NCBI GenBank assembly: GCA_036172245.1 | Contig: JAYWIR010000015.1 | Span: 4,278,001-4,318,369, forward strand | DNA length: 40,369 bases | DNA from: Raillietiella orientalis | Taxonomy: Eukaryota | Direction: 5' to 3' | Shown here: positions 6,288 through 40,369 of the stretch, one piece after another | Layout: the number at the start of each line of letters is the position of its first letter | Numbering within the stretch: the stretch's first letter is position 1 | Notes under the pieces: generated by a model | What the model was told of the DNA's origin: nothing | The model's input: only the letters and a program-made list of their open reading frames with translations | Databases searched by the model: none | Made by a program: the position numbers and the translations under genes

Positions 6288-6316
6288 CTTGCTTTGAAAG
6301 CTGGAATGCTTTTGAT

Positions 6317-10605: not shown

Positions 10606-10630
10606 AAAAAAAAAAAAAAAAAAAAAAAAA
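10606..10630 (+). repeat. A25 homopolymer
   Basis: 25 consecutive A, preceded by AATAAA at 10558 and 10571. Confidence 0.8.
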
Positions 10631-16658: not shown

Positions 16659-16665
16659 ATGTTCC

Positions 16666-16698
16666 AATAAATTCTCAAATGATAATTTACATTTTATT
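16666..16698. terminator. Back-to-back polyadenylation signals of the convergent brahma and DOHH genes
   Basis: AATAAA on + at 16666-16671, starting 8 nt after the brahma TAA. AATAAA on - at 16698-16693, overlapping the DOHH stop (GAA TAA A). Confidence 0.55.
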
Positions 16699-20600: not shown

Positions 20601-23600
20601 GACAGAGAACCCGAGTTCTAGTGCTGCTCATATTGGGTTTTCTTGGAGTTCAAACGTTGTTGGGGATGAGGTCGATCGAGTCGGGCCACTTGAAAGTCGT
20701 TTCACTCCAAATCCCTCAAGGAACCAACCACACATTGCACACCACACGCGCACGTTTGATCAGAAAGAGTGCTTGCGGCGCCACACTGCCAGCATGATTT
20801 CCGGATTGTGGTCCCCTCGATCTCTGAGAATTCCAACGTAGACATTTTGTGGATTTCTTGGAGTATCCAGATGGAATGGAGCCATCATGCTTGCTATAGT
20901 TCGCCCCTGGACATCGTTGCGCAGCCCACTGACATTCCAACGGGTCATGTTTATCCCACAGCAAGAGGAGATCTTTTGCATTACTGCTGGGAATGGGCGT
21001 TGTGACTGCCGTTCCTTCCACAAGAAGGTTGAGCGACAGCAACACGTGCTTTCCCTTACTTTCCTCGCACTGTTTGAGATTGCAGGACTCTCTCAGCAGT
21101 GTCTGCTGTCTCAGACACTGCTCTCTATTGGGCGCCTCCTCCCACGGGAACACACATCGGGTTGTAGGCATCGCCCAGAAATAGTAGCTCAGGTTTCGCC
21201 ACCGGTTATTCTGGTTTTCGACGCCACTCATAGCCGGGAGACTCTCGACGCGTTTCCCACACACGCCGTCGGAGTGTATTAATTTTTGGCTCGCCAATGC
21301 GAACAGCTGAAGAGCTGCTTCCAACTCTTAGGGCATCTTGAGAAACGAAATGAGAAGGGAAAAAAAAAAGGAATTCGTTTCTTGATGCTTTCTTTTGTTA
21401 CTCTTCTTTAAACAGTAATTTTCGATACTTTTCGACATTTGAACAAACGCCTTTGTGGTTGAATAATATTATATTGCGACACACCTCTGGTGATCTTCTG
21501 CTCTTTTTTAAGAATCCTCCTATACGACTGACGGAATATGAGCCTTGTACGAGGTCTTGCCGTGTGTCTGTTTGGACAGATTATTAATGAAAGCTTTCCA
21601 TCTAAAACTCCAAGAATGATTGAAACAAAACAACTTCAATCTTCCTCTCCAAAGTCTTGGGTTGGTTACAGTTTTGGTGTACGTGTGAAGAAACCGTGTG
21701 ATGGATTCCAAGAGAATTGAATCTTGATAAGGAATCGCAACCTCTTGCCTAAGGAACCATCACGTGGAGAAACGACTAAGCTGCATAAATTTGCTCTCTG
21801 AGTAGTTGGAAAGATGTGGTTAGCACTTTTGTACCAACGCCCTTCCGTAACCATGGGATGCTGCCTCTCCCAACTTTACGAAAAAGTGAAATTCCTTTGC
21901 CAAGGAATGAGAAAGCCGCTCGCCAAATGGAATTTCGGACCGAGAGTTCGAGTATTTTGGGTTATTTCGATTGTCCCCATTTGAGGGGATTTGAGAGAAT
22001 GAAACAGACGTTTTAGAATTAGCATTTGTTCCCCAAAACATATACAACTACTACATATTCCAGCTATATCAAATGCATCGCAGATTTACTTTAACATGAA
22101 AAACTACGACGGCAATCATGTCTATAGATTTCTGATGGACCCTGAGAAGAGTTTGTATATACACTATTTAGGAAGCTTTCGCATTTCTGTGCTTTCATTT
22201 CTGTGGTTGTTAATTCAGTGATGCCGGGGTTTTTGCGAGGGAAAAAAAAATGGGAAATGCTGCATGTAGAAAGCAACCTTCCCCACAGGCGAAAAAGCCC
22301 TTCTGCATGATTCCTGGCTGCTTGAGCAGGGAATTCTTTGGGGTGACTTTGGGAATTCAAAAGCAACTGACTGCGTTCCTCACCCAGGCTTCATGAGGCT
22401 AGGAAGGACTTTGTATCCCTGCAACCATTTCGAAGCAGATATGGACCAGTGGCAGATGCAGTCTAATGATCGAGGTTGTTATACATTTCGAAATCGAAAA
22501 CAAAATGAACGATAGTGGGTATGATCACCTTTTAGCGAAAACTCTGATATTCCTGCTTTGTTGCAGGAAGAAAAGGATGACAGCTCGCTTCCTAGGTTAC
22601 CTGTTGCTCGACACCATCCGCCCGTCGCGAAGCTTTCCATCTTTTGTCTATGGAAGCAAACCTTTCATCGTGCAATACTTACATACTTCAATCCGTTTTT
22701 GATGTCAACAAATGTTGATGAATTCAATGAAGTCACGAGATTATTTAGAGTGACTTGGAAGAACAACTGATGGAAAACAGCATGTTCGATGGAGACGGAA
22801 ATTTTCGATGAAAATTCGCAAAGCTGACACCATGGACTTTACGGAAACGACACCCATTTCTTCGACATCATGTTGTCACACTGATTCGATACAACTCATA
22901 CACTAAAGCAAACAACTTTGAGCCTTTGGGATCGACAAAATGAGTTTCTACGTAATCTATCTGAAAGCGTGCAGACTGTTGATATTCTAGACCAGCCCCT
23001 GATGTCAACAAATATAGAAATGGAGGGCAACAGAAACACCAAAAGTCTCACAGCCATGTCTTGCGTATCGCAACACCTCCCCGTCCGTTGAGGCTGTTCT
23101 CATGGAATTGTACCCAATTTTGCCGGCAACCGCAGCAGCGTTGAAAGCTATGTCCGATGGTCCAGTTGAAATCAATTCACATCTATTCGTACGCAGCTGT
23201 TTGTCAGGAACGTGCCAACTCGTAAAACGGTATTCTCAACACGCACCACGGCAACGGGACACCAGCACTGAGGTTAGAGAAATGCTCTTCCGATCGTGGG
23301 GTTTGCTCGCACAATGGAAATTCCAAGGCTTGTCTTGAGCAGGTACGCTCAATACAGAGAGCTTTTGTTGCCTGTGTACTTCTTTCTACCTTTCGGGAGG
23401 AGGGGGATCATGTACCTTTATGTTTACCGAAACCTCCAGCAACTAAAAGACGAATTCAAGATCACATCTCTACATCCAGCAGAGGAGCTGAAGTACGACC
23501 TGTCTACCACCGGCACCATGGCAATCGAAGCGAGACCTACGCTTAGAGATTGCACGTAACTTATTTTCCATGTTTCATGTGCCTCACCACAGTGGAGCTC

Positions 23601-24707
23601 CGCACAGCCAGGGGGTGCAGCATATACGAATGCATATTCAAAGTAAAGCAATTTACCAGATAATAATAAACAAAAATTTCCCGATCTTTCCATATAGCAC
23701 GTGGCGATCTTGGACTTATCTTCGAGACTTCATATGACTAGTTTCGACGGCCAAGTTTCAACCAGGAAGACACGTGATCCTGCAAAGTTCTGGTTGCACG
23801 GCTTACCCATGTTTCACACACTCCAGAAACAGCACTCATAGTATGGCAGGAAGAAATCGTTTGGCAACACTGCACATCGCTGCTCGCAACTCGGGGAGGC
23901 CATAGCACATCTTCCTAGAGGACCTACTTACCGAGGAGACCTAAGGTGCTTAAGTCGGGGCTTGGAATGACTACCGGCGACAAACAGCGCCAAATTCGAT
24001 TCGCCGAACGACCACTTTGGTGCCTGGCAAACAGCGATGCCACAAGTAAATGAAGGGTGGCGCTTTCACTTTGGAAAGAGTGTACAGACAGCTCTCGATG
24101 TACGAACGTTTGCTATAACGCACGTCATCGATTTTATGATTTTTTCTTTATTTGCGCAAAGCCCGCAATAGCGAGCGACATAATTACAAGATTGCTTGCT
24201 GACACCCTGAAGTTACTCAATACCATAGGATGTGAACTGGAATGGCGTGTGGAAAAACATGTGTCCTCGACCCTTGTGAGCAGTTTCAGTGGATTCTAGG
24301 CACCAGTGGAATCTGCGACTTTGGAGTTTGCTGAAGTGGGCAATCGAATGGAACCCAACCTCGACTCGGCTCATACGCAAGGGAGCCGCTCGACTCGCAT
24401 TCTGAGAAGGAACGAACAATCGATAGCAAAAGAAGCGAATCGAAACGCAGAAGAAGTGGCAGAAGAATTTGATGCTGCACGTTCTTCCAGAACATCCACG
24501 ACGCACAAGATGGCTGCGGCTTTTCGGCTCACTTCTGAGCTGCGCTGGAAATGTTTGAAGAGCAGCACTCGAAGATGGAGAGAATGTCGAGAACGCGAAA
24601 AGAGGCGTTTTTTCACCGAAACGTGACGATGAGGTCTTTAACGAAGAACAAAAAAGAGAAGAAAGAAAGAAACGAACCCCGGGTTGCGAAGATAAGGCCT
24701 CCTTACG

Positions 24708-26234
24708 ATGAGCGCATCTAACGAAAAGCGGCCAGGCGTGAAGAAGCGGCGCATCCCAATTCTTGGGCTGTCCCCCTGGAGCAGGAGCACGGATGCAGTG
24801 GAGGAAAAGATGCGGGAGCGCATCTTTTCCGCACCAGTCTTTGAAGACGCAACTCCCCCGCAGACGATGCTTGCGCTCTGGTTGCAATGCAAGCTAACCC
24901 ATGCGCCATCGGAGCGGGAACACACGCACTCGTCCACGCACGAACGACAGTCCACAAGTTGTTCTGGTGGCACACTGAAAAGTTCACAGCAGCGAAGGAC
25001 TGCTTTGGGGGAACATGGCCAGGCGTGGCACCTTCTGCCGGACTCCAGTCGCCCATGGGACGAGTTGATCGTGCGATCGGCAGGGCGCCCTCACATCCCG
25101 CCGGTAGGCAACTGTCCACTAAAGCAGAAAGCGCTGCCGCAAGGGGCGTGGAGAGCCCACTTGTGCTGGTCCTGCAGCACTTCCTCCACTGGACACGATG
25201 GGGAAAGGTGCACGCGCAACCAAGTTCCAAAACGACCACTTGCCTCGCGACGGTACGGCCGCGTGTCCCGGTTCGTCGGGCGGCAGGGGAATCAAGAGTG
25301 GGCTGCCAGGGACGAGCACGAGCTGCCCGAAGGGAAGCTCAAGAAGCCTCTGGTGGTGGCGCGCTGGGCATGCGGCAGCAACGAAAGCAGCAACTGGGGA
25401 TGACCGAGAGCTTCAGGAAACCTCTTCATGAACTCGTACACCGAGTGGATTTGCAATACCCGTGCATGCCGTGCATCAACGAACGTTTCTTGGAACAGGT
25501 GCTTGGAGAATGCAAAATGAGGTGCCTTTCAAGTTGAGTGCTGAGTGTCCCTTCACGGATGCGTTTCGCGAAACTCCAAGCCGTGCACGCGCCACCATCC
25601 CGCTCACCAGCCTGCTTGCTGTTGTCGCACGCAACAAGCATAGCATGCGCCAACGAACCGTGTCTTTGAGGCAAGCGCGCGTTCCACGCACTGCTGCTGC
25701 GCTGAACAAAAAATCCCACGCCTCTTCCGTCCTTCCGCGATTCGCCCTACGGGCGTGTGCTGCGCTGATCCCGACGCTCGTACGGGATGTACGGGAAGGG
25801 CCGGTGCACAAGCGCGAGGATATTCCAGGGAACGGGACGCGCACGCCTTGGATGGTCACAACGTACAACCGACGAAAGACGGGACGAGAAAAGAGGAAAG
25901 CGACGAACGGGCCGAATTGTTCCCGAGAATGGGGAACAGCGAAGATCGAGCCAAAGTGCGAGAAACGCTCCCGTTTCCCTTCCTTCGCACTTTTCTGCGC
26001 ATGAGCGTGCACCGAACCAGGATGAAGTGGCACTCGCCAAAGGCATTGCTCGAGCGTCGGTTGTGTGACGTCAGCACGGCCACCTCTCACTTCGGCAACG
26101 ATTCCCGTTGCTTAGCAAAGGAGATTTTTCCTGACGGAAGACCTTGCTGTGTGCTGCTTGCGAATTCGGTTGTCGGATCGACTCGCGCATTTCGTGGAAG
26201 AGATCGCAACTCGGAGTATCGTACTGCTGCGTAA
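24708..26234 (+). CDS. Tentative orphan gene A in the repeat unit (exons about 24708-25521, 25581-25670, 26021-26234; frameshift near 25400 in copy 1); paralog at about 33298-34800
   Basis: A long + frame, then phase-2-consistent junctions: AG|GTGCCT...CCAAG, and a GC donor AG|GCAAGC...CCAG. Copy 2 reads in one frame across the position where copy 1 shifts. No recognisable domain. Confidence 0.3.
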
Positions 26235-26644
26235 TCCAGCGCTTATCTACTTGTGCGTCTACTTGTGAATTCGGAAGTTCGTAGCGGATAGCGAATCCAT
26301 CCCAACCGGAAGTAATTCGCATCCCTGCGAATCCGGAGCTTCGGATTCGGTTCCGAAACCAAACGGAAAGCGAGTCTTGTCGCTCGTGACCCCGGAAAAA
26401 AAAACATCTCGCCTATCCTGCCGCCGAGGTATCCAGGAAGGATTACCGTACTGCCAACTTAGAAAAGCCAGTGGCTGTAATTTAGCAGGAAAGGAAAGCA
26501 GATCCAGAAACAAAGCTGAGCACCGGTAAGATGAATGCAAGGTCCGTGAGAATGTGGGAAATCAATCCTGTGGTGCACGTGTGACGCAGGAAGTGATTCG
26601 TGGCTTGTGCACGACTTCCAGGTCGAGTCCCTCGCACTTGGGAA

Positions 26645-27788
26645 ATGTGCTCAGCCTGGATTGGCATGTCTTCCCTGCGTATCGGGAAGGAGGAGTCCGA
26701 ATCGCCGAAGCAAAAAGCTTCGTTTCGGACCGCAGACACTGAGAGTCTGTACGCGAAGGCATCCTCTGCGACCGGGTCTTCTCCGAGAATCCAGAAGCAA
26801 ACGGAAGAGGAGTGGCCACCGGAGAGCAGCAGTGAGCCTTCCCGCACGGAAGCCAAGCCGAAGAGATGGCTTTGGTTCAGCTGGAAGAAAGGCAAGGGCA
26901 AGAAGAACGGAGCGGAGGAAGCGGGGAGCGGACCAGCCGAGACAGTACCTGTTGCGAACGGCTCCCCGACTACCGAGAAAAGCTGCAAGAAGCTCGTGAA
27001 AGCAACCTCGTTCTTCAAAAGCAACCTCACTCCACAAGAGAAGGAGAGCAAGGAATGCAGAAAGAGGGGGGAAAAAGCCAGCGAGGAAGCACGGAAGCGA
27101 GACAAGAAACGGAAAGATGAACGGAAGAAGAAGAGAAACGAGGAGGAAAGACAGAAAGCGAAAGAGAAACGGGAGGAAGATCGGGAATGCAAGAAGAAAT
27201 GCGGCAACAAACGGAATCGGTTCGTGCTGAAGAAGGTAGAAGTTCGGGAGCAACAGGAGACGAAGGAACGCGTGCCTGCGAATCGCAAAAGGCAAATGGT
27301 TCCGGGTGACGACAAGGAGGCGGCCGAAACGATTGCTTCCAAGCAGGAGCATGGAAACGGCGAACGAACGAAGACCACGAACGAAAAGGCGAAGAAAGGA
27401 AAAACGCTAGCTTGCTTCCGGTTCTCCAAGCACAGGGGAAGGAGAACCGGAGAAGATGCGACCCTGGCAACGTCCTTGCCAGGGAACGAACCTACGAAAC
27501 GCGAAGTCTCGAGCAAACTGCGAGGCAAAGACGGAGGCGGCGACGTAGCCAGGGAGCAGGAAGAGCATTCCCTGCAGATGCTGCTCACGGAGCCGAAGCG
27601 GAACGAAGGAAACGACTGCCGCCATTCCCGAGTCTGGGGAGCCGATGGCGCCGAACTGCCCTCGGCAGCTGTGGATGGGTGCGCAGGCACACATAGCCTC
27701 GAACTGCGAAGAAGAAAGCAGACCTCTCCAGATGGGTGGCTGGTCAGCCGCAGCGTTCAGTGCGACTATGGAGATTATTGCCGAGAAG
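26645..27788 (+). CDS. Large Lys/Glu/Arg-rich low-complexity orphan exon (open frame 26600-28039), probably the N-terminal exon of the CAP-like gene
   Basis: The frame is open for more than 1.4 kb and encodes a charged, coiled-coil-like stretch (EEARKRDKKRKDERKKKRNEEERQKAKEKREE). About 850 nt are free of indels between the two copies. A phase-1 donor (GAAG|GTTGGT, 27789) matches the phase-1 acceptor of CAP exon A. Confidence 0.55.
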
Positions 27789-28440
27789 GTTGGTGGAACG
27801 GGTTCTGCATTCCAGCCACTGCACACGCGTCTGCTCCCGTTCGGTGCCCCGGGTGGAGTTTGCGGATGCGCGTCGCTCGTTCTGCACGTTCGCGCACGAA
27901 CGTACGCGTACGTGTGCGTGGCTCGTGTGGAGCTCGCAACGCGTTTGCATGCGTTTGGTCGAGAAACTTGCTTTTTGTTCGCTTGCGCGCGAAACAAGGA
28001 AGGACGGAAAAGAAGAAGAGCCGTTGCACGTGTTCTTGACCGGAAGCCGGTAGAAGGGGTGCGCATTTCGGAAAAGTGCAGGCTTGTCTGGAAAGAGCGC
28101 CGCTGCGTTGCCTTCGGGAATTTCACAGGCGCGCTTTGTTCTTCAAACTCTTTCCGGAACCAGGTGGCCATTTATCCGAGTGCAAGCTGCTGCGAGAGCA
28201 TTTTGTCGAGCCGAACGTTCCGCAAGCAAGGCAATTGCACTTGGGATGCGAAGAAAAGCAATGATAATTTCCCTTCGCATGAACGTTTCGTGTGCTTCTC
28301 TCATGGCAGCGTTGCGACGTGATGGCGGTGGCGGGAGCGGTGCGCTGACGGCTTGCGAGGCACGCGTGTTGCCACTCGCGTTGTCCGATCGGTTGAATGC
28401 ATGAAAAATGCTAATGAGACGCTTCTTGTTTTTCCCAAAG

Positions 28441-29601
28441 GGCAAATCGAGTCCGTGGTCCCGGCACTGGAATCCTTGATAACGCGATTGGAGATAGCAG
28501 CCACGGCGCTGGAAGCTGCGGCAACGGAGGCCGAACTTGGCGTGGAGCAGTCGGATGGCTTCGGTAATTGCGACTGTCCGCGTGCAATGGCTTGCTGCTT
28601 GCCCGCAAGTCCGATGTGCACGTCCGCGCTGCCTGGAATAGCCGAAATCGGCAGAGCGACGCGTGCAGCGAAGATGAGCTGCAGCGGCCATTCTCGCTTT
28701 CTGTCGACCTAACACGGCTTGGCTGATCAACTCACAACTCACGGGTCGCTAACAGCTCGCAATGGAGAAACAGCGTGCCTTCCATCGTCCAGAATGTCGA
28801 TACCTTGTTTGCCGCTGTTTCCAGAGATCAGCAATCCGTGGCTCGAAGATTACGCCCGAATTGGGAAGGGATCTTTGGCCGTCTACCGCAATCTGTCGGC
28901 CAAGATCTCGGAAGCGGTTCGCAAGCACTCGGACATGGTGCTGAAAGCATTCAAGTAAGCGTGTAAGGTGTTCATAAGCCCACGATGGAAGGTTCCCTCT
29001 CCTCGGTTTCCCAGTTGCTAACCATCTTCCTTTCCTGTTGCAGGATCCAGGGGCGTTTGATGCAACTAATATGCTGCTCGCAGGAACCCGACGACTCGAA
29101 AGTGCTCGACCTCCTTCAACCGCTTTCCGAGTGCATCGTGCAGATCGAGGCATTCGAGCAAAGTCAGCGCGACACCGAGACGCATGTTCACCTGTGTGTG
29201 ATCAGCCAGAGTGTGGCAGCCATCCTTTGGGTGACCATGGTAGGTGTACGGGCACGCATCCGCAAAGTTTCTTTCCTTTTCGTAGAGCCCCTATCCCGCA
29301 GATGCTGTTCAAGATATGATGTTTTTATGCCGACTCCCTGTGAAGCGCGTCCTCCAAGAATGGGAGGAAAAGTGAGTTTCCGGCTCGAAGAGAAGATCCG
29401 GAATCGTGCTTGCTCGTTTCTTTCAGCGATGATCATGTGTGTTGGGTGAAGTCGTGGATGGCCGTATTGTCCGTGTTGCACAGTTTGGCGAAGACCCATC
29501 ACACGACGTGGGTTCCCTGGCACGCAAAAGGTGCCAGCGTTGAGAAGCACACCCCACCTCCACCCTTGCCGACCTCTTCCCACTCTCCTACGTCCCGGTG
29601 A
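28441..29601 (+). CDS. Divergent cyclase-associated protein (CAP/Srv2) N-terminal-half gene, copy 1. Exons A-E: 28441-28563, 28825-28954, 29044-29239, 29286-29371, 29427-29601
   Basis: The spliced product (LESLITRLEIAATALE...SLAVYRNLSAKISEAVRKHSDMVLKAF...LDLLQPLSECIVQIEAF...HLCVISQSVAAILWVTMSPYP...KRVLQEW...HVCWVKSWMAVLSVLHSLAKTHHTTWVPW...PPPPLP*) follows the CAP RLE oligomerisation motif, helical folded domain and P1 polyproline. The four introns (261, 89, 46, 55 nt) are phase-consistent. An alternative in-frame ATG lies at 28401. Confidence 0.85.
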
Positions 29602-30643
29602 CCCGGAAGGCCTGCTTTGCTTGCACGGTCGAATGCAGGCAAAGCAGTCACAATAAATACGTGTCGAATTTCGAATGATCTTTCAGTTCTTGAATGGTCC
29701 ACGACTGCCAAGTCGCCCATTCCACATTACCGAAAGTTTGGCACCATGCGACGGCACCAACCAAGTTGTGCAGAATGCTCAGCCACTTTTCAGCGTGGTT
29801 TCCATTTTCCCTCGTTCCCTCGAATGCTCTGAATGAGGAAAACAAGCAGAAAAGAACCACCAAAAGATCAAAGTCGACTTCGAAACTGCGAGTTCGACTG
29901 CATCCACTCAATTTTGCCACACATTGGAATGGGACGCTCCTTTTTCGCTTCCAAATGCAACACGCACCCTGCGCGGTCCAGCGAGAGCCAACTCTCGTGA
30001 AACCACTGCTCTCCAAAGTAGCGAAGATGAAGTTTCAGCCACAGCGGATTCCACCCAAAGCTGACCAAGGCAGCAACAGTCAGAAGATTGGACGGACCCA
30101 TAGTGAGAATGCAAACCGGGCATGCCGTCCACCCATTTAGTACCAGCCGAACACATTTTCCACTTTTTTCTTACGAAAAGGGAACTCGTTCATGCCTTCG
30201 CACCGCGGTGGGAAGACTATGTCCACTGATAGTCAGACTTTTCGGATGACTCAAAATAGGAGATTGCGACTGATCTCGTGGTTTCTGCCTGAATGCCCTC
30301 TTCCCTGTGGCACGCAGCATCCAGCTGCCAACCGGATTCGCTTCAGTCCTCATGATGTCGGTCGACTCGTGCCGACATGCCATTGTGGAAAATGAACTAA
30401 CAGAGGTGGTGGAAGCAATGCCGCGAAGGATGTGCGCAGACTCGCCAGGTTCGCTGGTCCTTGGCAGAATTGCAGAAGGACAAGCAAGAACGGGGAGAAA
30501 ATGAAAAGCAAATAGGAAGAAATGGGGGGAAGACGCTTGGAAGGGATCGCTGCCTGTTCCTCTGCATCTTTCCTAAGGTGCCGGCGGGGTGTTGCTGAAC
30601 GCTTCCCAGCTGGGACCATCTTAATGCTTTTCGTGGGAAGCAA

Positions 30644-31800
30644 ATGGCCACGCGGAACGATGGCGCGTCCGTGTCTCCCAGGCGTCGCCGCAGGCCGCCA
30701 CGATCCGGCTCTAGCCGCAATGAGCTGCTAGGGACGCGGCTGGCGGTAGATGCATCACTTCCAAACGCTCCTGCAATTGTATCCCCGGGATCCCAAGGGT
30801 GGGCACAACAAAGTTTAACCAGCAGGAAGCCTGAGAGCCACAGAATCCGCATTCAGCTGCGGGCGGATCCGCGCTCTCCGTGCCGGCTCTAGTTGGGGCT
30901 CCCACACAACCCGGGTCCAGTGAAGTCGGAGGGGGTTCGAAGAGAAACAATCCCAGTGCAACAGCAGAATCGCCGAATACGTACCCAAAAAGGTAAGATG
31001 TAAGTGTTCTCAGGAGGACTGGGGACCATCGGTAGTCTCGCCGGGGAATAGCCAAGAGCTCGCGGCTGCGAAGACGTAGGGCACTTGGTACCCGCGAGCT
31101 CGCTGTAGATCAACCACCCAAGTCTTTCTTCCTGGAGTTGAACTCTCACGAGACCTTCCACCTTCTTGGCATGCTGCTGCCCAAGAAGCTCCCGCAGGCA
31201 TCATTGCCGCGTGGGAGGTTCAATCCAGGCTCAGCTCCCTTGCCACGATGCACGACTGTTTCCTGGAGGCAGAAGTTGTTACAGAAGCAGTACAGCAGCC
31301 GCCGCCGTGACTCCGGGCCCGTCTGCTTGCTGTTCGCCCGCGTGCCCAGTTTCCTGCAAGCAAACGCTACCGTTCGCGGGGCGATCCTGCTGGAGGTGCA
31401 GCTGTTCTTCCTGGTCGGTGAGACGTGATGCGAAGTGCGCAGTGGGCCACGTTGGACAGTATGCCGAGCATACCAAGAAAGTGGATGGGATTGTTTCGCG
31501 AGGATGGGCGTCGAAGGCAGAACGAACTCGAGTGCAAACGTTGGGAATGCTTTCGGTACACTTTCGATGAGACCGATCAGGTGTGAGAAAATCCGAACGT
31601 GGAGGAAAGCGTGTATTCCATCTTCTCCAGGTGTTGACCGTATGCGCCTTGCGCCGCGTCAGAAAAGACGCAGGAGAGCTGTCCTGCTCCGGCGCTGCAA
31701 GACGGCCCCGGATCGTCGGCAATCTGAGGAACAGGGTCGGGCAAACCGCCTTCGCTTTTTTCGCAGCGCCTCCCTTTTTTGCAACGGAGGAGGGTGCTGA
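30644..31800 (+). pseudogene. Tentative orphan gene C in the repeat unit (exons about 30644-30992 with an in-frame TAG at 30890, 31109-31417, 31631-31800)
   Basis: Strong donors AAG|GTAAGA (30993) and CG|GTGAGA (31418) and acceptors at 31108 and 31630 are all phase 1. The middle exon has G/C-ending codons, and its single difference from copy 2 is synonymous. The product is Arg-rich with no recognisable domain. Confidence 0.25.
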
Positions 31801-33907
31801 ATGCCGGCTGTGCCCTCGCCTGCCTCAGACTGCTTGGCAACGAATAACGTGGTGCAGAGCGGAGGCAGCAGCCACCTCGAGAGCTAGCTCGTTTCTCCGG
31901 GAACGCCTGCCGCGCACAATCTTCGCTTCGATCTTCCTCGGCCATCAGCGAACCTTTCTGCGCGCAAGCCTGCGCCGAACTGCGTGCGCAGTGGCGCGAC
32001 AACGCGCGTGTCTGCGACAAGAAAGGAACACTTGTTTCCGAATGGCAATCCCGGAGATGGAGGCCGGCAGGCTTTGCAGATGGAACGCGGAAGAGCTGGC
32101 CCGGTCATTGCGGAAGCCGGTCGGATAGCTGGCTTCTCGCGAAACGACACATCTGCACAACGTCGCTGCCGTTGGCCGTTTCATTTCCTCCCTCCGTTCA
32201 AGCAAGCCTTCGCTACGCGCACGTTCTCCGCACCGGAAATGCTGCCGCTTCACCCTTCCCAGCTGTCACCTCTGCAGCACTTCTTCATCGTGCATCCTTT
32301 CTTGTGGGTCACGCGCATACACCAGTTTCACCCATCCATCACAAGATGACGCATCTCTGCTGATCTTCGCAGAACCTCTATCGTGAAGCCCGTTTCGCTC
32401 GAGCCTCGTTTCCACCGAGGATGGGCAAGAAGGTAGGCAGCGAAAAAGCGCACGTGCGAAATGCGCCACCTCACTTGCCATGCATTTTCTCCTTCACGTC
32501 ACACGGATTTCCTGCTGCGTTTCACGCCGTCGTATGCACCGTCACAGCAAACGTTCGCATGCAAATGAAGCAACAGGAGAGAGTCCGCTTCGACCGACCT
32601 CGCTTGCCCCCGCACCGTTTCGCATGTCGAGCACACGCTCGAACGCTGTGACCAGCAAGCAAGCTGTTGCCATCAGGCAGTGGAACGCTGCCAGTGCGTG
32701 CCTGCCGCATCCAACGATTTGTCATTGGGTTCGTGCGGTGGTATCCGTCATCGGCGGCAAGCTGCCACGTTGAGCGCATCCCGCTTCGGCAAGCACGCTC
32801 TTGCTGCGCGTTCAGCCGTGTGCGGCGGCGCCGCGTTGCTCGCGATCTTTCCGGGAAGAAGGGAGGATGAAGGCAGGGAAAGAAGGACGTCGGACAGGTG
32901 GACTGCCAGTCTAACGTGGCGTCGCACGGCAAGTCCGGAACAGTCCACAAATACTGATGTAAGAAACACGCAAAAAGTGTGAGAACGAGACGATGACGGG
33001 GGTTTGCGCGTTCGGCCGTTCCCTCCAAGCGGAACCGGCGCTGCATAACGAACATCTCGCTGCTCGCTCATATCTTCTGCGAGTTCAGGCCGCCTGGCAG
33101 GCGTCGTCATGTTGACTTCAGCGGAAGAAGTGTCGTCTCGAAGAACCGCCCGAGACTCCAGCTGGTGGAGGGTTGCGAACATAAGGCCTCCTTACGATGA
33201 GCGCATCTAACGAAAAGCGGCCAGGCGTGAAGAAGCGGCGCACATGAGATCCCTCGGCTGTCCCCCTGAGCAGGGAGCACGGATGTAGTGATGAAAGATG
33301 CGGGAGCGCATCTTTCCGCTTCAGTCTTTGAAGACGCAACTCCCTGCAGACGATGCTTGCGCTCTGCTTGCAATTTTTAAGCAACTCCATGCGCCATCGG
33401 AGCGGGAACACACGCACCGTCCAACCACGCACGAACGACAGTCCACAAGTTGTTCTGGTGGCACACTGAAAAGTTCACAGCAGCGAAGGACTGCTTTGGG
33501 GGAACATGGCCAGGCGTGGCACCTTCTGCCGGACTCCAGTCGCCCATGGGACGAGTTGATCGTGCGATCGGCAGGGCGCCCTCACATCCCGCCGGTAGGC
33601 AACTGTCCACTAAAGCAGAAAGCGCTGCCGCAAGGGGCGTGGAGAGCCCACTTGTGCTGGTCCTGCAGCACTTCCTCCACTGGACACGATGGGGAATGGT
33701 GCACGTGCAACAAAGTTCCAAAACGACCACTTGCCTCGCGACGGTACCGGCGCGTGTCCCGGTTCGTCGGGCGGCAGGGGAATCAAGAGTGGGCTGCCAG
33801 GGACGAGCACGAGCTGCCCGAAGGGAAGCTCAAGAAGCCTCTTGTGGTGGCGCGCTGGGCATGCGGCAGCAACGAAAGCAGCAACTGGGATGTGACCCTG
33901 GAGAGCT

Positions 33908-33908
<1 letters not shown>

Positions 33909-33978
<70 letters not shown>

Positions 33979-33985
33979 TTTTTTT
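33909..33985. repeat. C70 followed by T7, present only in copy 2
   Basis: Copy 1 reads GAGAGCTTCAGGAAACCTC at the equivalent site (about 25406-25424). Confidence 0.85.
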
Positions 33986-35209
33986 GTAAACCTCTTCATG
34001 AACTCGTACACCGAGTGGATTTGCAATACTTGTGCATGCCGTGCATCAACGAACGTTTCTTGGAACAGGTGCTTGGAGAATGCAAAATGAGGTGCCTTTC
34101 AAGTTGAGTGCTGAGTGTCCCTTCACGGATGCGTTTCGCGAAACTCCAAGCCGTGCACGCGCCACCATCCCGCTCACCAGCCTGCTTGTTGTTGTCGCAC
34201 GCAACAAGCATAGCATGCGCCAACGAACCGTGTCTTTGAGGCAAGCGCGCGTTCCACGCACTGCTGCTGCGCTGAACAAAAAATCCCACGCCTCTTTTCC
34301 GTCCTTCCGCGATTCGCCCAACGGGCGTATGCTGCGCTGATCCCGACGCTCGTACGGGATGTACGGGATGGGCCGGTGCACAAGCGCGAGGATATTCCAG
34401 GGAACGGGACGCGCACGCCTTGGATGGTCACAACGTACAAACGACTAAAGACGGGACGAGAAAAGAGGAAAGCGACGAACGGGCCGAATTGTTCCCGAGA
34501 ATGGGGAACAGCGAAGATCGAGCCAAAGTGCGAGAAACGCTCCCGTTTCCCTTCCTTCGCACTTTTCTGCGCACAGTCCCTTCCAATGAGGTGAAGTGGC
34601 ACCTGCCAAAGGCATTGTCGAGTGTCATTGCATTGTGCTACGGGCTCCTTTCAATTTCGGTATCGATCTTCCCGTTGCTTAGCAGGCGGAGATTTTTCCT
34701 GACGGAAGAACTTGCTAAAGCGTTTGCGAATTCGGTTGTCGGATCGACTCGCGCATTTCGTGGACGAGATCGCAACTCGGAGTATCGTACTGCTGCGTAA
34801 TCCAGCGCTTATCTACTTGTGCGTCTACTTGTGAATTCGGAAGTTCGTAGCGGATAGCGAATCCATCCCAACCGGAAGTAATTCGCATCCCTGCGAATCC
34901 GGAACTTCGGATTCGGTTACGAAACCAAACGGAAAGCGAGTCTTGTCGCTCGTGACCCCGGAAAAAACACATCTCGCCTATCCTGCCGCCGAGGTATCCA
35001 GGAAGGATAACCGTACTGCCAACTTAGAAAAGCCAGTGGCTGTAAGGTAGCAGGAAAGGAAAGCAGATCTAGAAACAAAGCTGAGCACCGGTAAGATGAA
35101 TGCGAGGTCCGTGAGAATGTGGGAAATCAATCCTGTGGTGCACGTGTGACGCAGGAAGTGATTCGTGGCTTGTGCACGACTTCCAGGTCGAGTCCCTCGC
35201 AATTGGGAA

Positions 35210-35379
35210 ATGTGCTCAGCCTGGATTGGCATGTCTTCCCTGCGTATCGGGAAGGAGGAGTCCGAATCGCCGAAGCAAAAAGCTTCGTTTCGGACCGCAG
35301 ACACTGAGAGTCTGTACGCGAAGGCATCCTCTGCGACCGTGTCTTCTCCGAGAATCCAGACGCAAACGGAAAAAATTTT

Positions 35380-35423
<44 letters not shown>

Positions 35424-36397
35424 GGAGTGGGGTGTTCGAGAGCAGCAGTGAGCCTTCCTGCACGGAATGCCGGAAGAGATGGCTGTTCAGCTGGAAGAAA
35501 GGCAAGGGCAAGAAGAACGGAGCGGAGGAAGCGGGGAGCGGACCAGCCGAGACAGTACCTGTTGCGAACGGCTCCCCGACTACCGAGACAAGCTGCAAGA
35601 AGCTCGTGAAAGCAACCTCGTTCTTCAAAAGCAACCTCACTCCACAAGAGAAGGAGAGCAAGGAATGCAGAAAGAGGGGGAAAAAAGCCACCAAGGAAGC
35701 ACGGAAGCGAGACGAGAAACTGAAAGATGAACGGAAGAAGAAGAGAAACGAGGAGGACAGACAGAAAGCGAAAGAGAAACGGGAGGAAGATCGGGAATGC
35801 AAGAAGAAATCCGGCAACAAACGGAATCGGTTCGTGCCGAAGAAGGTAGAAGTTCAGGAGCAACAGGAGACGAAGGAACACGTGCCTGAGAATTGCAAAA
35901 GGCAAATGGTTCCGGGTGACGACAAGGAGGCGGCCGAAACGATTGCTTCCAAGCAGGAGCATGGAAACGGCGAACGAACGAAGACCACGAACGAAAAGGC
36001 GAAGAAAGGAAAAACGCTAGCTTGCTTCCGGTTCTCCAGGCACAGGGGAAGGAGAACCGGAGAAGATGCGACCCTGGCAACGTCCTTGCCAGGGAACGAA
36101 CCTACGAAACGCGAAGTCTCGAGCAAACTGCGAGGCAAAGACGGAGGCGGCGACGTAGCCAGGGAGCAGGAAGAGCATTCCCTGCAGATGCTGCTCACGG
36201 AGCCGAAGCGGAACGAAGGAAACGACTGCCGCCATTCCCGAGTCTGGGGAGCCGATGGCGCCGAACTGTCCTCGGCAGCTGTGGATGGGTGCGCAGGCAC
36301 ACATAGCCTCGAACTGCGAAGAAGAAAGCAGACCTCTCCCCAGATGTGTGGCTGGTCAGCCGCAGCGTTCAGTGCGACTATGGAGATTATTGGCAAG
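35210..36397 (+). CDS. Copy 2 of the Lys/Glu/Arg-rich exon, disrupted as assembled by the poly-T insertion and a +2 indel near 36340
   Basis: Colinear with 26645-27788, with 15 substitutions and no indels over 35491-36339. Confidence 0.45.
35376..35420. repeat. T5-C-T39 homopolymer, present only in copy 2
   Basis: Copy 1 reads ACGGAAGAGGAGTGG at the equivalent site (about 26801-26815). Confidence 0.85.
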
Positions 36398-37056
36398 GTT
36401 GGTGGAACGGGTTCTGCATTCCGGCCACTGCACACGCGTCTGCTCCCGTTCGGTGCCCCGGGTGGTGTTTGCGGATGCGCGTCGCTCGTTCTGCACGTTC
36501 CCGCACGAACGTACGCGTACGTGTGCGTGGCTCGTGTGGAGCTCGCAACGCGTTTGCATGCGTTTGGTCGAGAACTGCTTTTGTTCGCTTGCGCGCGAAA
36601 CAAGGAAGGAACGAAAAAGAAGAAGAGCCGTTTGCACGTGTTCTTGACCGAAAGCCGGTAGAAGGGGTGGCGCATTTCGGAAAAGCGCGCAGGTTTGTCT
36701 GGAAAGAGCGCCGCTGCGTTGCCTCTTCGGGAATTTCATAAGGCGCTACTCTTCAACTCTTTCCCGAACCAGGTGGCCATTTAGGGAGGAAATTCCATTG
36801 ATGCTGCTGCGAGAAAGATTTGTTCTCCTCGAGCCGAACGTTCCGCCAGCAAGGCAATTGCACTTGGGATGCGAAGAAAAGCAATGATAATTTCTCGCAT
36901 GAACGTTTCGTGTGCTTCTCTCAGCAGCGTTGCGACGTGATGGCGGTGGCGGGGAGCGGTGCGCGACATTGCGAGGCACGCGTGTTGCCACTCGCGTTGT
37001 CCGATCGGTTGAATGCATGAAAAATGCTAATGAGACGCTTCTTGTTTTTCCCAAAG

Positions 37057-38210
37057 GGCAAATCGAGTCCGTGGTCCCGGCACTGGAATCCTTGATAACG
37101 CGATTGGAGATAGCAGCCACGGCGCTGGAAGCTGCGGCAACGGAGACCGAACTTGGCGTGGAGCAGTCGGATGGCTTCGGTAATTGCGACTGTCCGCGTG
37201 CAATGGCTTGCTGCTTGCCCGCAAGTCCGATGTGCACGTCCGCGCTGCCTGGAAAGCCAGCCCGGTAGAGCGACGCGTGCCAAGATGAGCTGCAGCGGCC
37301 ATTCTCGCTTTCTGTCGACCTAACACGGCTTGGCTGATCAACTCACAACTCACGGGTCGCTAACAGCTCGCAATGGAGAAACAGCGTGCCTTCCATCGTC
37401 CAGAATGTCGATACCTTGTTTGCCGCTGTTTCCAGAGATCAGCAATCCGTGGCTCGAAGATTACGCCCGAATTGGGAAGGGATCTTTGGCCGTCTACCGC
37501 AATCTGTCGGCCAAGAACTCGGAAGCGGTTCGCAACACTCGGACATGGTGCTGAAAGCATTCAAGTAAGCGTGTAAAGGTTCATTCCTCGTTGGAGGAAG
37601 GTTCCTCCTCGGTTTTTCCCAGTTGCTAACCATCTTCTCTTCCCTGTTGCAGGATCCAGGGGCGTTTGATGCAACTAATATGCTGCTCGCAGGTCCGACG
37701 ACCTCGAAAGTGCTCGACCTCCTTCAACCGCTTTCCGAGTGCATCGTGCAGATCGAGGTATCTGAGCAAAGTCAGCGCGACACCGAGACGCATGTCTGCT
37801 CCAAAGTATCAGCCAGAGTGTGGCAGCCATCCTTTGTGACCATGGTAGGTGGTCGGGCACGCATCCGCAAACTTTCTTTCCTTTTCGTAGAGCCCCTATC
37901 CCGCGGATGCGGTTCAAGACATGATGTTTTTATGCCGACTCCCTGTGAAGCGCGTCCTCCAGGAATGGAAGCAAAAGTGAGTTTCCGGGTCGAAGGGAAG
38001 ATCGGGAAAAGATGGTGCTTGCTCGTTTCTTTCAGCGATGATCATGTGTGTTGGGTCAAGTCGTGGATGGCCGTATTGTCCGAGTTGCACAGTTTGGCGA
38101 AAACCCATCACACGACGTGGGTTCCATGGCACGCAAAAGGTGCCAGCGTTGAGGAGCACACCCCACCTCCACCCTTGCCGACCTCTTCCCACTCTCCTAC
38201 GCCCCGGTGA
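37057..38210 (+). pseudogene. CAP/Srv2 N-terminal-like gene, copy 2; frameshifted in exons B and C as assembled (pseudogene or consensus errors)
   Basis: Exons A (37057-37179), D (37891-37976) and E (38036-38210) are intact and the same length as in copy 1. Exon B has a 1-nt deletion (CGCAACACTCG) and exon C has several clustered indels. Confidence 0.6.
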
Positions 38211-38656
38211 CCCGGAAGGCCTGCTTTGCTTGCACGTTCGGATGCTGGCAAAGCAGTCACAATAAATACGTGTCGAATTCCGAATGATCTTTCAGTTCTT
38301 GAATGGTCCACGACTGCCAAGTCGCCCATTCCACATTACCGATAGAGTTTGGCACCATGCGACGGCACCAACCAAGTTGTGCAGAATGCTCAGCCACTTT
38401 TCAGCGTGGTTTCCATTTTCCCTCGTTCCCTCGAATGCTCTGAATGAGGAAAACAAGCAGAAAAGAACCACCAAAAGATCAAAGTCGACTTCGAAACTGC
38501 GAGTTCGACTGCATCCACTCAATTTTGCCACACATTGGAATGGGACGCTCCTTTTTCGCTTCCAAATGCAACACGCACCCTGCGCGGTCCAGCGAGAGCC
38601 AACTCTCGTGAAACCACTGCTCTCCAAAGTAGCGAAGATGAAGTTTCAGCCACAGC

Positions 38657-39296
38657 GGATTCCACCCAAAGCTGACCAAGGCAGCAACAGTCAGAAGATT
38701 GGACGGACCCATATTGAGAATGCAAACCGGGCATGCCGTCCACCCATTTAGTACCAGCCGAACACATTTTCCACTTTTTTCTTACGAAAAGGGAACTCGT
38801 TCATGCCTTCGCACAGCGGTGGGAAGACTATGTCCACTGATAGTCAGACTTTTCGGATGACTCAAAATAGGAGATTGCGACTGATCTCGTGGTTTCTGCC
38901 TGAATGCCCTCTTCCCTGTGGCACGCAGCATCCAGCTGCCAACCGGATTCGCTTCAGTCCTCATGATGTCGGTCGAGGATTCCACCCAAAGCTGACCAAG
39001 GCAGCAACAGTCAGAAGATTGGACGGACCCATATTGAGAATGCAAACCGGGCATGCCGTCCACCCATTTAGTACCAGCCGAACACATTTTCCACTTTTTT
39101 CTTACGAAAAGGGAACTCGTTCATGCCTTCGCACCGCGGTGGGAAGACTATGTCCACTGATAGTCAGACTTTTCGGATGACTCAAAATAGGAGATTGCGA
39201 CTGATCTCGTGGTTTCTGCCTGAATGCCCTCTTCCCTGTGGCACGCAGCATCCAGCTGCCAACCGGATTCGCTTCAGTCCTCATGATGTCGGTCGA
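38657..39296 (+). repeat. 320-bp direct tandem duplication inside copy 2 (38657-38976 and 38977-39296)
   Basis: GGATTCCACCCAAAGCTGACC...GATGTCGGTCGA occurs twice in tandem, with one mismatch seen (CACAGCGG vs CACCGCGG). It is single in copy 1. Confidence 0.9.
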
Positions 39297-40369
39297 CTCG
39301 TGCCGACATGCCATTGTGGAAAATGAACTAACAGAGGTGGTGGAAGCAATGCCGCGAAGGATGTGCGCAGACTCGCCAGGTTCGCTGGTCCTTGGCAGAA
39401 TTGCAGAAGGACAAGCAAGAACGGGGAGAAAATGAAAAAGCAAATAGGAAGAAATGGGGGGAAGACGCTTGGAAGGGATCGCTGCCTGTTCCTCTGCATG
39501 TTTCCTAAGGTGCCGGCGGGGTGTTGCTGAACGCTTCCCACCTGGGACCATCTTAATGCTTTTCGTGGGAAGCAAATGGCCACGCGGAACGAATGGCGCG
39601 TCCGTGTCTCCCAGGCGTCGCTGCAGGCCGCCACCATCCGGCTCTAGCCGCAATGAGCTGCCAGGGACGCGGCTGGCGGTAGATGCATCACTTCCAAACG
39701 CTCCTGCAATTGTCCCCGGTTTCCCAAGGGTGGCCACAAAGTTTAACCACCAGGAAGCCTGAGAGCCACAGAATCCACATTCAGCTGCGGGCGGATCCGC
39801 GCTCTCCGTGCCGGCTCTAGTTGGGGCTCCCACACAACCCGGGTCCAGTGAAGTCGGAGGGGCTTTGAAGAGAAACAACCCCAGTGCAACAGCAGAATCG
39901 CCGAATACGAAACCAAAAAGGTAAGATGTAAGTGTTCTCAGGAGGACTGGGGAGCATCGGTAGTCTCTTTGGGGAATAGCCAAGAGCTCGCGGCTGCGAA
40001 GACGTAGGGCACTTGGTACCTGCGAGCTCGCTGTAGATCAACCACCCAAGTCTTTCTTCCTGGAGTTGAACTCTCACGAGACCTTCCACCTTCTTGGCAT
40101 GCTGCTGCCCAAGAAGCTCCCTCAGGCATCATTGCCGCGTGGGAGGTTCAATCCAGGCTCAGCTCCCTTGCCACGATGCACGACTGTTTCCTGGAGGCAG
40201 AAGTTGTTACAGAAGCAGTACAGCAGCCGCCGCCGTGACTCCGGGCCCGTCTGCTTGCTGTTCGCCCGCGTGCCCAGTTTCCTGCAAGCAAACGCTACCG
40301 TTCGCGGGGCGATCCTGCTGGAGGTGCAGCTGTTCTTCCTGGTCGGTGAGACGTGATGCGAAGTGCGCA

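Follow-up and report, generated by a model that had tools for sequence, protein, structure and literature searches.

The two halves of CAP have separable activities, and it is mainly laboratory work that has, until now, taken them apart. Engineered fragments combining the oligomerisation coil with the helical folded domain (HFD), with or without the first polyproline, are taken from the full-length protein and bind the pointed ends of cofilin-actin. Among insects, tandemly amplified, truncated or chimeric genes that evolve rapidly are exemplified by Drosophila Sdic and Stellate. According to the review PMC7543520, most invertebrates have one highly conserved copy of CAP, which acts in actin turnover, and full-length paralog pairs exist in vertebrates (CAP1/CAP2) and C. 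elegans (CAS-1/CAS-2). Closest in architecture to the locus reported here are the insect CAP long isoforms, such as those of Anopheles gambiae (AGAP010175-PA; 790 aa), Cardiocondyla obscurior (928 aa), Neodiprion (738 aa) and Spodoptera litura (isoform X1; 758 aa); these were taken from database annotations. A literature search for a described capulet long isoform returned nothing relevant.

The locus lies in the window, i.e. the whole 40 369-nt stretch of Raillietiella orientalis DNA that was analysed. Like the vertebrate and C. elegans pairs, it is an additional locus derived from CAP in the genome of an animal but, whereas those paralogs are complete and conserved, it is partial and highly derived. 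It shares the HFD, and putatively the coil, with the engineered fragments, although here the truncation is genomic and, with F -> L and Y -> P in the residue pair that we map to the actin interface, the same activity is unlikely. Like Sdic and Stellate, it is a partially duplicated gene in tandem arrangement, in which amino-acid changes between the copies are in excess and some units have degenerated, although the parent gene is unrelated. Its charged low-complexity N-terminus, pre-coil junction, putative RLE coil, linker, HFD, polyproline and WH2 follow the same order as in the insect long isoforms; it differs from them in having no CARP half, a WH2 that is decayed behind a stop codon, an N-terminal region that is basic where theirs are acidic, and tandem repetition. 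Our preferred reading, held with moderate confidence, is that the locus is a long-maintained truncated N-CAP paralog that arose as a partial CAP duplicate; copy 1 would probably still be coding, and copy 2 appears to be degenerate.

Exon structure and homology to CAP

The spliced model of copy 1 consists of six phase-consistent exons totalling 1851 nt, or 617 codons (Table 1), in agreement with an earlier note on this DNA, which had proposed a protein of ~617 aa with a charged part of ~380 aa; the charged exon encodes 381 aa. Four introns with GT..AG termini separate the CAP-homologous blocks A–E, and a fifth, putative, intron precedes exon A; since introns are present, the locus does not have the structure expected of a processed (retro-) pseudogene. 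The exon count and phases given previously for A–E were borne out by our reading of the splice sites. Exon A is preceded by CTTCTTGTTTTTCCCAAAG, with GCTAAT at 28410–28415, and its proposed phase-1 acceptor is compatible with the donor at 27789: the codon split across 27788/28441 takes one base from the charged exon and two from exon A. At the exon D boundary, homology begins at 29286, where SPYPA aligns to SPTPA of canonical CAPs. The junction 29239|29286 was preferred to an alternative model of 613 codons, with the donor at 29244 and the acceptor at 29301, both on homology and because the 29301 acceptor is lost in copy 2 through a change that is synonymous under the chosen model. Also dropped was the reading of the CAP-like VQNVDTLF, in another frame, as an old frameshift of exon B, as it is to the frame of exon B that canonical CAPs align. 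The intron between exons C and D (intron 3) is short, and this was counted against a functional reading.

Table 1. Positions in the window of the tandem units, the exons of both copies and associated features
Feature	Position	Strand	Remarks
Tandem unit, copy 1	24681..33169		GC-rich, ~8.5 kb; left edge of array
Charged exon (putative first coding exon)	26645..27788	+	ATG 26645; donor AAG|GTTGGT, phase 1; within ORF 26597-28039
Intron 0 (putative)	27789..28440	+	652 nt; in-frame ATG at 28401
Exon A	28441..28563	+	Putative coiled-coil (oligomerisation) region; RLE, with ALE seven residues later
Exon B	28825..28954	+	HFD start; tblastn to CAPs up to 56% identity over 34 aa
Exon C	29044..29239	+	HFD helices; donor ATG|GTAGGT, phase 0
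Exon D	29286..29371	+	HFD; acceptor TTTTCGTAG; preceding intron 46 nt
Exon E	29427..29601	+	Last HFD helix; short polyproline PPPPLP; TGA 29599-29601
Vestigial WH2 and following residues	29602..~29750	+	Exon E frame, behind TGA; CAP alignments run through TGA
AATAAA, likely polyadenylation signal	29652..29657	+	51 nt past stop
Tandem unit, copy 2	33170..40369		Cut short by window end; internal 320-nt duplication
Copy 2 of gene	35210..38210	+	Coordinates by pairwise alignment; frame broken
Copy 2 charged exon	35210-36397	+	
Copy 2 exons A-E	37057-37179, 37436-37564, 37653-37844, 37891-37976, 38036-38210	+	

Homology to CAP is clearest in exon C. Scored on single ORF pieces rather than on the spliced whole domain, Pfam family CAP_N (PF21938) matched two of the five pieces: exon C with an E-value of 1.2e-9 (38.9 bits; cut-off 27) and exon E with one of 0.0053 (17.3 bits, under the cut-off). 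The exon C match supplies the profile check that the earlier note had proposed and confirms its assignment of an HFD; the same exon matched the CAP1 HFD chain 6rsw_C with an E-value of 1e-6. A representative search with exon C gave 11 matches, from which P0002 (an ankyrin-repeat protein) and P0009 (a low-complexity repeat) were set aside as spurious. In tblastn with 127 CAP proteins, exons B, C, D and E were matched collinearly, and the locus aligns to CAPs without gaps inside the HFD exons. For exon A, a home-made HMM of the insect pre-coil and coil placed this exon and its copy-2 twin first among 1151 ORFs, if weakly (E-values of 0.064 and 0.046); exon A identity to arthropod coils is 0–45%. 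The description of the locus as intron-bearing, CAP-derived and confined to the N-half up to the first polyproline is thus supported.

Sequence behind the stop codon

The terminal TGA is common to both copies, as had been reported. The accompanying claim that no WH2 coding sequence follows does not hold: directly behind the TGA, and in frame, lies a decayed WH2 with a Smith–Waterman score of 53, against a null mean of 25.4 and a null maximum of 37, such that none of 300 shuffles reached the observed score. It retains 6 of the 18 WH2 columns that are conserved, with TCRI in place of LKKV; no second polyproline stretch was found. What is present is a vestige and not a WH2 between two polyprolines. 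Behind the TGA the frame remains open for another 76 codons, a hint that the stop is recent.

The CARP half, in turn, is missing from the window, as the earlier note had it: Pfam CAP_C (PF08603) matched none of the 123 ORFs of at least 55 aa across 23226–34104, a search that leaves room for exons of <55 aa, and no tblastn match from the 127 CAP proteins was obtained anywhere in the window, which leaves room for exons beyond it. In the 15.7 kb from 24681 to 40369, AATAAA occurs on either strand only at 29652 and at its copy-2 twin, 38261.

Divergence of the HFD and the actin-binding surface

The HFD is 33–40% identical to those of 30 arthropod CAPs, which are 52–99% identical among themselves, and none of the canonical arthropod CAPs examined comes near the locus in divergence: in an HFD tree of 33 hand-picked named CAPs out of 120 listed (the 87 left out being unnamed or redundant), its end branch is 8.0 against a median of 0.13. 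The locus has no supported placement in this tree, which gives neither an origin nor a date. Changes affect 39 of the 79 HFD columns that are at least 93% conserved and include F167L and Y168P. In Kotila 2019 (PMC6876575), the yeast substitutions Phe162Ala/Tyr163Ala at the HFD interface are reported to disrupt CAP function. The invariant F–Y pair lost here would correspond to yeast F162/Y163, and the actin-binding surface of the HFD, this pair included, seems not to have been retained. As half of the conserved HFD positions are changed, the F–Y pair among them, the predicted protein most likely no longer drives cofilin-dependent pointed-end depolymerisation.

The interior of the domain has fared better. 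Hydrophobic character persists at 47 of the 53 conserved-hydrophobic HFD columns, and the invariant residues kept number 22 of 32 for hydrophobic positions versus 18 of 47 for polar ones.

The tandem units and the state of the reading frame

Direct-repeat families have spacings of 8489–8933, placing the units ~8.6 kb apart, and blastn of copy 1 against copy 2 gives identities of 94.7–98.0%, starting at 24681/33170; overall, the units are ~95% identical, with a patchy divergence that ranges from 100% identical stretches down to 89%. The GC3 of the locus is 0.65–0.68, versus 0.23–0.39 in neighbouring genes. Of the earlier description 'tandemly amplified', the tandem repeat stands, although only 1.85 units are in view and one of these is broken. 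The ten splice signals are all identical between the copies, as are the TGA and the AATAAA; the copies are not, however, equivalent, since copy 2 carries frame-breaking indels in exon B (a 1-nt deletion), exon C (six indels, net −4) and the charged exon (a 50-nt T-rich insertion and eight other indels). Copy 2 is accordingly best regarded as a putative degenerate duplicate. As copy 1 reads through and copy 2 is broken, the gene is either an odd young one or a dying one.

We suggest that the locus began as an intron-bearing duplicate of the 5' portion of an arthropod (capulet-type) CAP gene, which would have comprised a long N-terminal exon, a coiled-coil exon, four HFD exons, the first polyproline and WH2, with the CARP half absent. 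This duplicate, which is repeated in tandem in a GC-rich array (two or more units of ~8.6 kb), would have evolved extremely fast, with the TGA now ending the frame just ahead of the decayed WH2 and the only AATAAA of the unit placed after the stop; the lineage would nevertheless have been kept as a coding gene through most of its history. The predicted copy 1 product would comprise ~249 aa if started at the ATG at 28401, or 617 aa if the charged exon is included; its N-terminus would be basic and disordered and be followed by a coil and an HFD resembling a six-helix bundle. The retained fold and coil could serve elsewhere, for example by joining CAP oligomers as a modifier or by binding a new partner. 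More tentatively, and with a probability that we consider low, the product could be an expressed, tandemly amplified, rapidly diversifying, natural HFD-only CAP derivative with a basic disordered N-terminus, a coil and a re-surfaced bundle, which modifies CAP oligomers or binds a new partner. On that reading, differences in the charged exon that all change the amino acid while the frame is preserved would be a pattern typical of genes in germline or other genetic conflict. If the preferred reading is true, the locus would provide a natural N-half-only paralog with its fold retained and its actin surface rewritten, and a ready-made test of scaffold roles of the coil and HFD apart from pointed-end depolymerisation.

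The strongest competing explanation is that both units are dead, forming an array of unprocessed CAP pseudogene fragments in which the copy 1 frame is open through recent inactivation or through recent copying from a diverged functional paralog. We judge this to be somewhat unlikely. Of the two units one, at least, is dead, and copy 1 may itself have been inactivated not long ago: in addition to the copy 2 indels in exons B and C, the two copies share a TGA ahead of a WH2 that is still recognisable, the conserved HFD columns and F–Y pair described above have been lost, the substitution density of exons C–E (3.4–7.0%) is as high as that of the introns, and a word-based search of longer database proteins found none containing exon C (weak evidence). 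Against this, copy 1 has no stop across 236 CAP codons, whereas in a neutral, substitution-only simulation from a canonical start to 38% identity 999 of 1000 runs acquired stops and a single one remained stop-free, a result that presupposes a canonical parent, as a diverged functional parent elsewhere would make the copies recent pseudogenes. The preferential retention of the hydrophobic core and the position of the only AATAAA of the unit, just past the stop, likewise speak against dead units. Were the locus dead, it would be an ordinary partial duplicate, of value mainly as an annotation caution: charged N-terminal extensions are a normal part of the long isoforms of insect CAPs, and behind a stop that looks natural there can be the relic of a WH2.

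Comparison of the two copies bears on the same question. The charged core (the central 855 nt) differs by 1 indel event and 15 substitutions, and exons D and E together by 0 indel events and 12 substitutions, against 32 indel events and 39 substitutions in the introns and flank (intron 0 having 20 and 19, respectively); relative to the introns and flank, the indel deficit is significant for both the charged core (Fisher P = 0.0037) and exons D and E (P = 0.0026), which argues against dead units. So does the pN/pS of the CAP exons, 0.43 (13 nonsynonymous and 9 synonymous changes; one-sided P = 0.047), a value that rests on 22 changes. Gene conversion could distort both the indel and the pN/pS contrasts. 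A period-3 signal is found in the charged exon (z = 8.2; 0 of 500 shuffles; 11.9 in a neighbouring real exon) and in exon C (z = 5.1), with z = −0.4 in intron 0 and ~0 in other DNA of the unit. The 15 substitutions in the charged core are all nonsynonymous, which fits positive selection but also a frame without purifying selection. Judged by the simulation, the hydrophobic core, the indel depletion and pN/pS, all of them indirect signs, the copy 1 frame does not appear to have evolved neutrally. Several signs (the stop-free copy 1, the core, the indels, the period-3 signal and the AATAAA) favour the preferred reading of a paralog maintained as coding.

Origin of the charged N-terminal exon

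The product of the charged exon is basic and rich in Lys, Glu and Arg (K+R 23%, E+D 17%, pI 9.6). It matched no Pfam family, a word-based search of proteins of 206–657 aa returned no homologue, a protein atlas look-up gave no usable match, and no similarity to canonical N-terminal extensions was found, including by tblastn with the 127 CAP proteins.

Among the CAPs returned by our search, 18 proteins start with MF[SK]..C, and 17 of the 127 have a conserved block, GRDELALRRHRFF (EPPxTPxGRDELALRRHRFF..EHRVRFDPLGP), upstream of the coil. The five long forms that were measured have charged, low-complexity N-terminal extensions of 202–446 aa ahead of this block, and isoform differences would put the canonical splice junction immediately ahead of the coil. 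For insects, therefore, it is incorrect to assume that canonical CAP starts with the RLE coil. The locus has an acceptor at 28440, directly before the coil, and, 652 nt further upstream and in compatible phase, a charged exon that is open over 381 codons; it thus appears to follow the long-isoform layout of a junction before the coil and a long charged region upstream. As a charged exon joined to a coil exon is the ordinary layout of insect long isoforms, the architecture is not evidence of a new chimera.

The proposal, made previously, that the charged exon is a newly recruited orphan, forming a true chimera with N-CAP, nevertheless draws on the lack of similarity to canonical extensions or to anything else searched, on a net charge opposite to theirs (pI 9.6 versus 4.1–5.1 in the five extensions measured), and on the missing N-terminal signatures, the MF[SK]..C start (MF..CC in the long isoforms) being absent from the charged exon and the GRDELALRRHRFF block from the exon model. 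We consider it unlikely. Insect CAP genes already have a charged low-complexity region of 200–450 aa directly before the coil exon, such that position and architecture are what inheritance would give, and these extensions are barely alignable even between insect orders. Moreover, intron 0, which separates the charged exon from exon A, contains a weak possible vestige of the block, at 27918–27971 in copy 1 and 36527–36578 in copy 2; it is on the right strand and ranks first by score among the 246 tiles of the window, but of 200 shuffles for each copy 3 reached its score in copy 2 and 32 in copy 1. Two other resemblances to the long-isoform N-terminus were taken as chance: an FSCC match to the start motif on the minus strand at 6750–6920 (E ~0.1), with no preceding Met and no nearby CAP exons, and EPPETPAG at 33134–33166 (E 0.37).

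The in-frame ATG at 28401 offers a second possible 5' end of the coding sequence. It is accordingly conceivable, if rather improbable, that the two parts are never joined, the CAP part starting at this ATG (~249 aa) and the charged ORF being a gene of its own, an untranslated leader or a relic. The ATG is in frame 13 codons ahead of the putative exon A acceptor, a phase match of a single donor–acceptor pair is expected by chance in one case out of three, and arithmetic from the indels and coordinates indicates that the same junction would be out of frame in copy 2. Set against these points, the ATG falls inside the branch point and polypyrimidine tract of a good acceptor that coincides with the canonical pre-coil junction, its −3 base is a T, and the charged ORF has both a coding signature and an indel deficit.

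Finally, it is very improbable that the tandem duplication is an assembly artefact, arising for example from two haplotypes or mis-polished long reads, with the copy 2 indels as consensus errors: indels are unusually frequent relative to substitutions (57 gap openings against 82 mismatches in 3.6 kb) and many are of 1–2 nt, but they include a 50-nt and a 10-nt insertion, the 320-nt internal duplication and a ~75-nt run of proline codons that is present in a single copy, a divergence of ~5% is high for alleles and, unlike sequencing errors, the indels avoid the coding parts.

CAP homology and exon structure

The locus reads as a partial, intron-bearing and tandemly duplicated derivative of the actin regulator CAP (Srv2/capulet). 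The ORF piece covering exon C matches Pfam CAP_N (PF21938) with an E-value of 1.2e-9 (38.9 bits; cut-off 27), which bears out the assignment to CAP and its helical folded domain (HFD) made in the earlier note; the exon E piece matches the same profile under the cut-off (E 0.0053), and the other three of the five ORF pieces have no Pfam match. Exon C also matches the HFD of mouse and human CAP1 in the PDB (E 1e-6), and all but two of its 11 matches in an exhaustive HMMER search (E ≤0.001) are CAPs, with 21–42% identity; the two exceptions were set aside as spurious after inspection of their sequences. A word-based search of longer database proteins with exon C gave no match. The profile search matched 678 CAPs, 120 of them listed, and 127 CAP proteins used as tblastn queries align collinearly with exons B, C, D and E on the plus strand of both repeat units, with no convincing match in the window outside these exons. 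In several database proteins (P0003, P0006, P0008 and P0010), between two and four complete HFDs follow one another in a single polypeptide, an architecture unlike that of both canonical CAP and the window gene.

The exons of the first unit (copy 1, 24681–33169) sum to 1851 nt, or 617 codons, so that the phase-consistent model and the product of ~617 aa proposed earlier are upheld. For the exon C/D junction, 29243|29302 in the first model was dropped in favour of 29239|29286, because the CAP alignments (tblastn) start at 29286, pairing SPYPA with canonical SPTPA, and because the AG at 29301 is destroyed in the second unit by a change that is synonymous under the 29286 model.

Features of the window and exon model of copy 1
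Feature	Position	Strand	Remarks
MCM-type helicase-like gene	1816–4046	-	ORF translation judged by eye
Brahma-type SNF2 ATPase-like gene	11429–16658	+	ORF translation judged by eye
HEAT-repeat gene, deoxyhypusine-hydroxylase-like	16694–17678	-	ORF translation judged by eye
Charged exon	26645 (ATG)–27788	+	donor AAG|GTTGGT; leaves one base of split codon
Exon A	28441–28563	+	preceded by GCTAAT...CTTCTTGTTTTTCCCAAAG; supplies two bases of split codon; donor TCG|GTAATT
Exon B	28825–28954	+	donor CAA|GTAAGC
Exon C	29044–29239	+	donor ATG|GTAGGT
Exon D	29286–29371	+	donor AAA|GTGAGT
Exon E	29427–29601	+	terminates at TGA

The tandem array

The units form a direct tandem repeat with a period of ~8.6 kb, which spans 24681 to the window end, where the second unit (copy 2, from 33170) is incomplete. 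They are 94.7–98.0% identical (blastn), and this identity is a mosaic ranging from 100% to 89%: 286–300-nt stretches of 99–100% identity (28353–28638; 29735–30345) adjoin one of 89% (29231–29424), which suggests gene conversion between units. The left 19 kb of the window is AT-rich (GC 31–41%), whereas GC jumps to 53–60% from ~24 kb rightward, a sharp compositional break (1–19000 versus 24000–40369); likewise, GC3 is 0.65–0.68 in the CAP-like gene and 0.23–0.39 in the three flanking genes. GC-biased conversion can speed protein change without adaptation, and such conversion within the array is a possible source of the high GC3 and the GC break.

The tandem amplification claimed in the earlier note holds insofar as two units are in view, but copy 2 is broken by indels. 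Relative to copy 1, its exon B carries a 1-nt deletion and its exon C six indels (net -4); its charged exon, the Lys/Glu/Arg-rich putative first exon, has a 50-nt T-rich insertion, rich in A/T homopolymers, at 35371–35420, six more indels near the 5' end, and changes of +2 and -3 near the 3' end. The protein cannot be encoded by copy 2, and this unit is dead. In copy 2 only, a 320-nt stretch is doubled head to tail (38657–39276); the family D1 repeat occurs three times, at 30046, 38657 and 38977. A CCN/GGN codon run of ~75–90 nt (~33895–33990), reading as poly-Pro or poly-Gly, is present in copy 2 and absent from copy 1.

Loss of the C-terminal half

The terminal TGA is common to both units, as previously described. 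It reads as a premature stop within a formerly longer exon because an in-frame relic of WH2, part of the C-terminal half of CAP, lies behind it; since this relic sits 3' of the stop, the truncation is judged genuine yet secondary. Many CAP alignments continue through the TGA in unchanged frame, to ~29750, and the post-TGA sequence RPALLARSNAGKAVTINTCRISND pairs with the canonical RSALFAQINQGExITKxLKKVTxD. When 12 of 85 distinct WH2 segments were scored against the translated post-stop sequence, a score of 53 was obtained, compared with 300 dinucleotide shuffles that averaged 25.4 and peaked at 37, and the signal is confined to the exon E frame. The vestige keeps six of 18 conserved columns, with LKKV replaced by TCRI. 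The earlier statement that no WH2 lies downstream is thus contradicted, whereas that for CARP stands: CAP_C matches none of 123 ORFs (≥55 aa, 23226–34104), and tblastn with the 127 CAP proteins gives no CARP match within the window. The frame past the TGA is open for 76 more codons, suggesting a stop of no great age. Of the 40 AATAAA motifs in the window, the 15.7-kb GC-rich array contains just two, counting both strands: one at 29652 and its counterpart at 38261, 51 nt past the TGA.

Origin of the charged exon

A chimeric origin had been proposed on the grounds that canonical CAP begins at the RLE coil. This does not hold for insects: the CAPs among the matches listed include short ones of ~420 aa whose sequence begins with the HFD, others of ~530 aa that have the coil, and long ones of 600–930 aa. 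At least 18 CAPs among the matches listed start with MF[SK]..C, and 17 of the 127 have a strongly conserved block, EPPxTPxGRDELALRRHRFF..EHRVRFDPLGP, directly 5' of the coil. In five long CAPs measured, the region before this block comprises 202–446 aa and is charged, Ser/Thr/Asn-rich and of low complexity. Comparison of insect isoforms places an exon junction immediately before the coil, the position of the window acceptor at 28440. Because insect long CAPs have both the charged extension and this junction, a long charged exon joined to the coil exon reads as the normal arrangement in the parent gene, and the architecture no longer argues for a chimera. Together with the flanking genes, this match to insect CAPs is the ground on which the source was taken to be an arthropod, probably an insect.

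The charged exon has no significant similarity to canonical CAP extensions or database proteins (word-based search of proteins of 206–657 aa; tblastn with 127 CAPs), an MF..CC start was sought in it and is absent, and its pI is 9.6 (basic), as against 4.1–5.1 (acidic) in the five canonical extensions measured. The sense strand of intron 0, the putative intron that separates the charged exon from exon A, holds a sequence, VARVELATRLHAF, that may be a remnant of the conserved block; its score is the highest of 246 window tiles and is reached by three of 200 shuffles for copy 2 and 32 of 200 for copy 1. Inheritance of the charged exon from a canonical CAP extension is tentatively favoured.

Maintenance or decay of copy 1

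The window HFD is 33–40% identical (median 36%) to those of 30 arthropod CAPs, which share 52–99% (median 69%) among themselves; it keeps 40 of 79 columns that are ≥93% conserved, and its end branch in the HFD tree is 8.0 changes per column, compared with a median of 0.13. The putative gene nonetheless has the marks of a long-kept open frame. Counted in favour of a maintained gene is, first, the CAP part of copy 1, with no stops in 236 codons: in a neutral simulation that presumes a canonical parent, in which a back-translated canonical sequence drifted to 38% identity by substitutions only, the mean was 6.7 stops and one of 1000 runs remained open. Secondly, 47 of 53 conserved-hydrophobic HFD columns are still hydrophobic, and invariant residues are kept at 22 of 32 hydrophobic versus 18 of 47 polar positions, the pattern expected if the helical bundle were maintained while its surface changed. 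The two copies agree at each of the ten splice signals, at the stop and in the AATAAA, and the position of the array's only two AATAAA motifs just past the stop is counted in favour as well. Period-3 signal in the charged exon is z = 8.2 (0/500 shuffles), compared with 11.9 for the brahma exon, 5.1 for exon C, -0.4 for intron 0 and ~0.3 for three other unit stretches. Indel events per substitutions between units are 1/15 in the charged core (the central 855 nt of the charged exon, 26873–27727 against 35483–36337) and 0/12 in exons D and E, versus 32/39 in introns and the post-stop stretch (Fisher P 0.0037 and 0.0026, respectively). Finally, the CAP exons differ by 13 nonsynonymous and nine synonymous changes (pN/pS 0.43; one-sided P 0.047).

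Counted against are the broken copy 2, the substitution density of exons C–E (3.4–7.0%, not below that of introns), the 76 open codons, the lack of a database protein containing exon C in the word-based search, the canonical parent assumed in the simulation, the high GC3 and the patchy inter-unit identity, on account of which gene conversion may confound the indel and pN/pS contrasts. Moreover, all 15 substitutions in the charged core are nonsynonymous (none synonymous versus ~22% expected; at most one indel event), which can mean either diversifying selection or absence of purifying selection.

Predicted product

If expressed, the copy 1 product would comprise the coil, the helical bundle and a short polyproline stretch, whether or not a basic disordered N-terminus of 381 aa precedes them. 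Canonical activity of CAP's N-terminal half depends on the HFD–actin interface: mutations of surface residues at both HFD–actin interfaces lower pointed-end depolymerisation, and in vivo, CAP function is disrupted by the yeast interface substitutions Phe162Ala/Tyr163Ala (Kotila et al. 2019, PMC6876575). In the arthropod HFD a single adjacent F-Y pair is invariant; the window has Leu-Pro in its place (F167L, Y168P), and we infer that the F-Y pair is equivalent to yeast Phe162/Tyr163. Given its replacement, and granted this equivalence, the product is expected to have no depolymerising activity of the canonical kind. Through the coil that it keeps, it could join CAP oligomers, as was suggested earlier; alternatively, the altered HFD surface could bind another partner.
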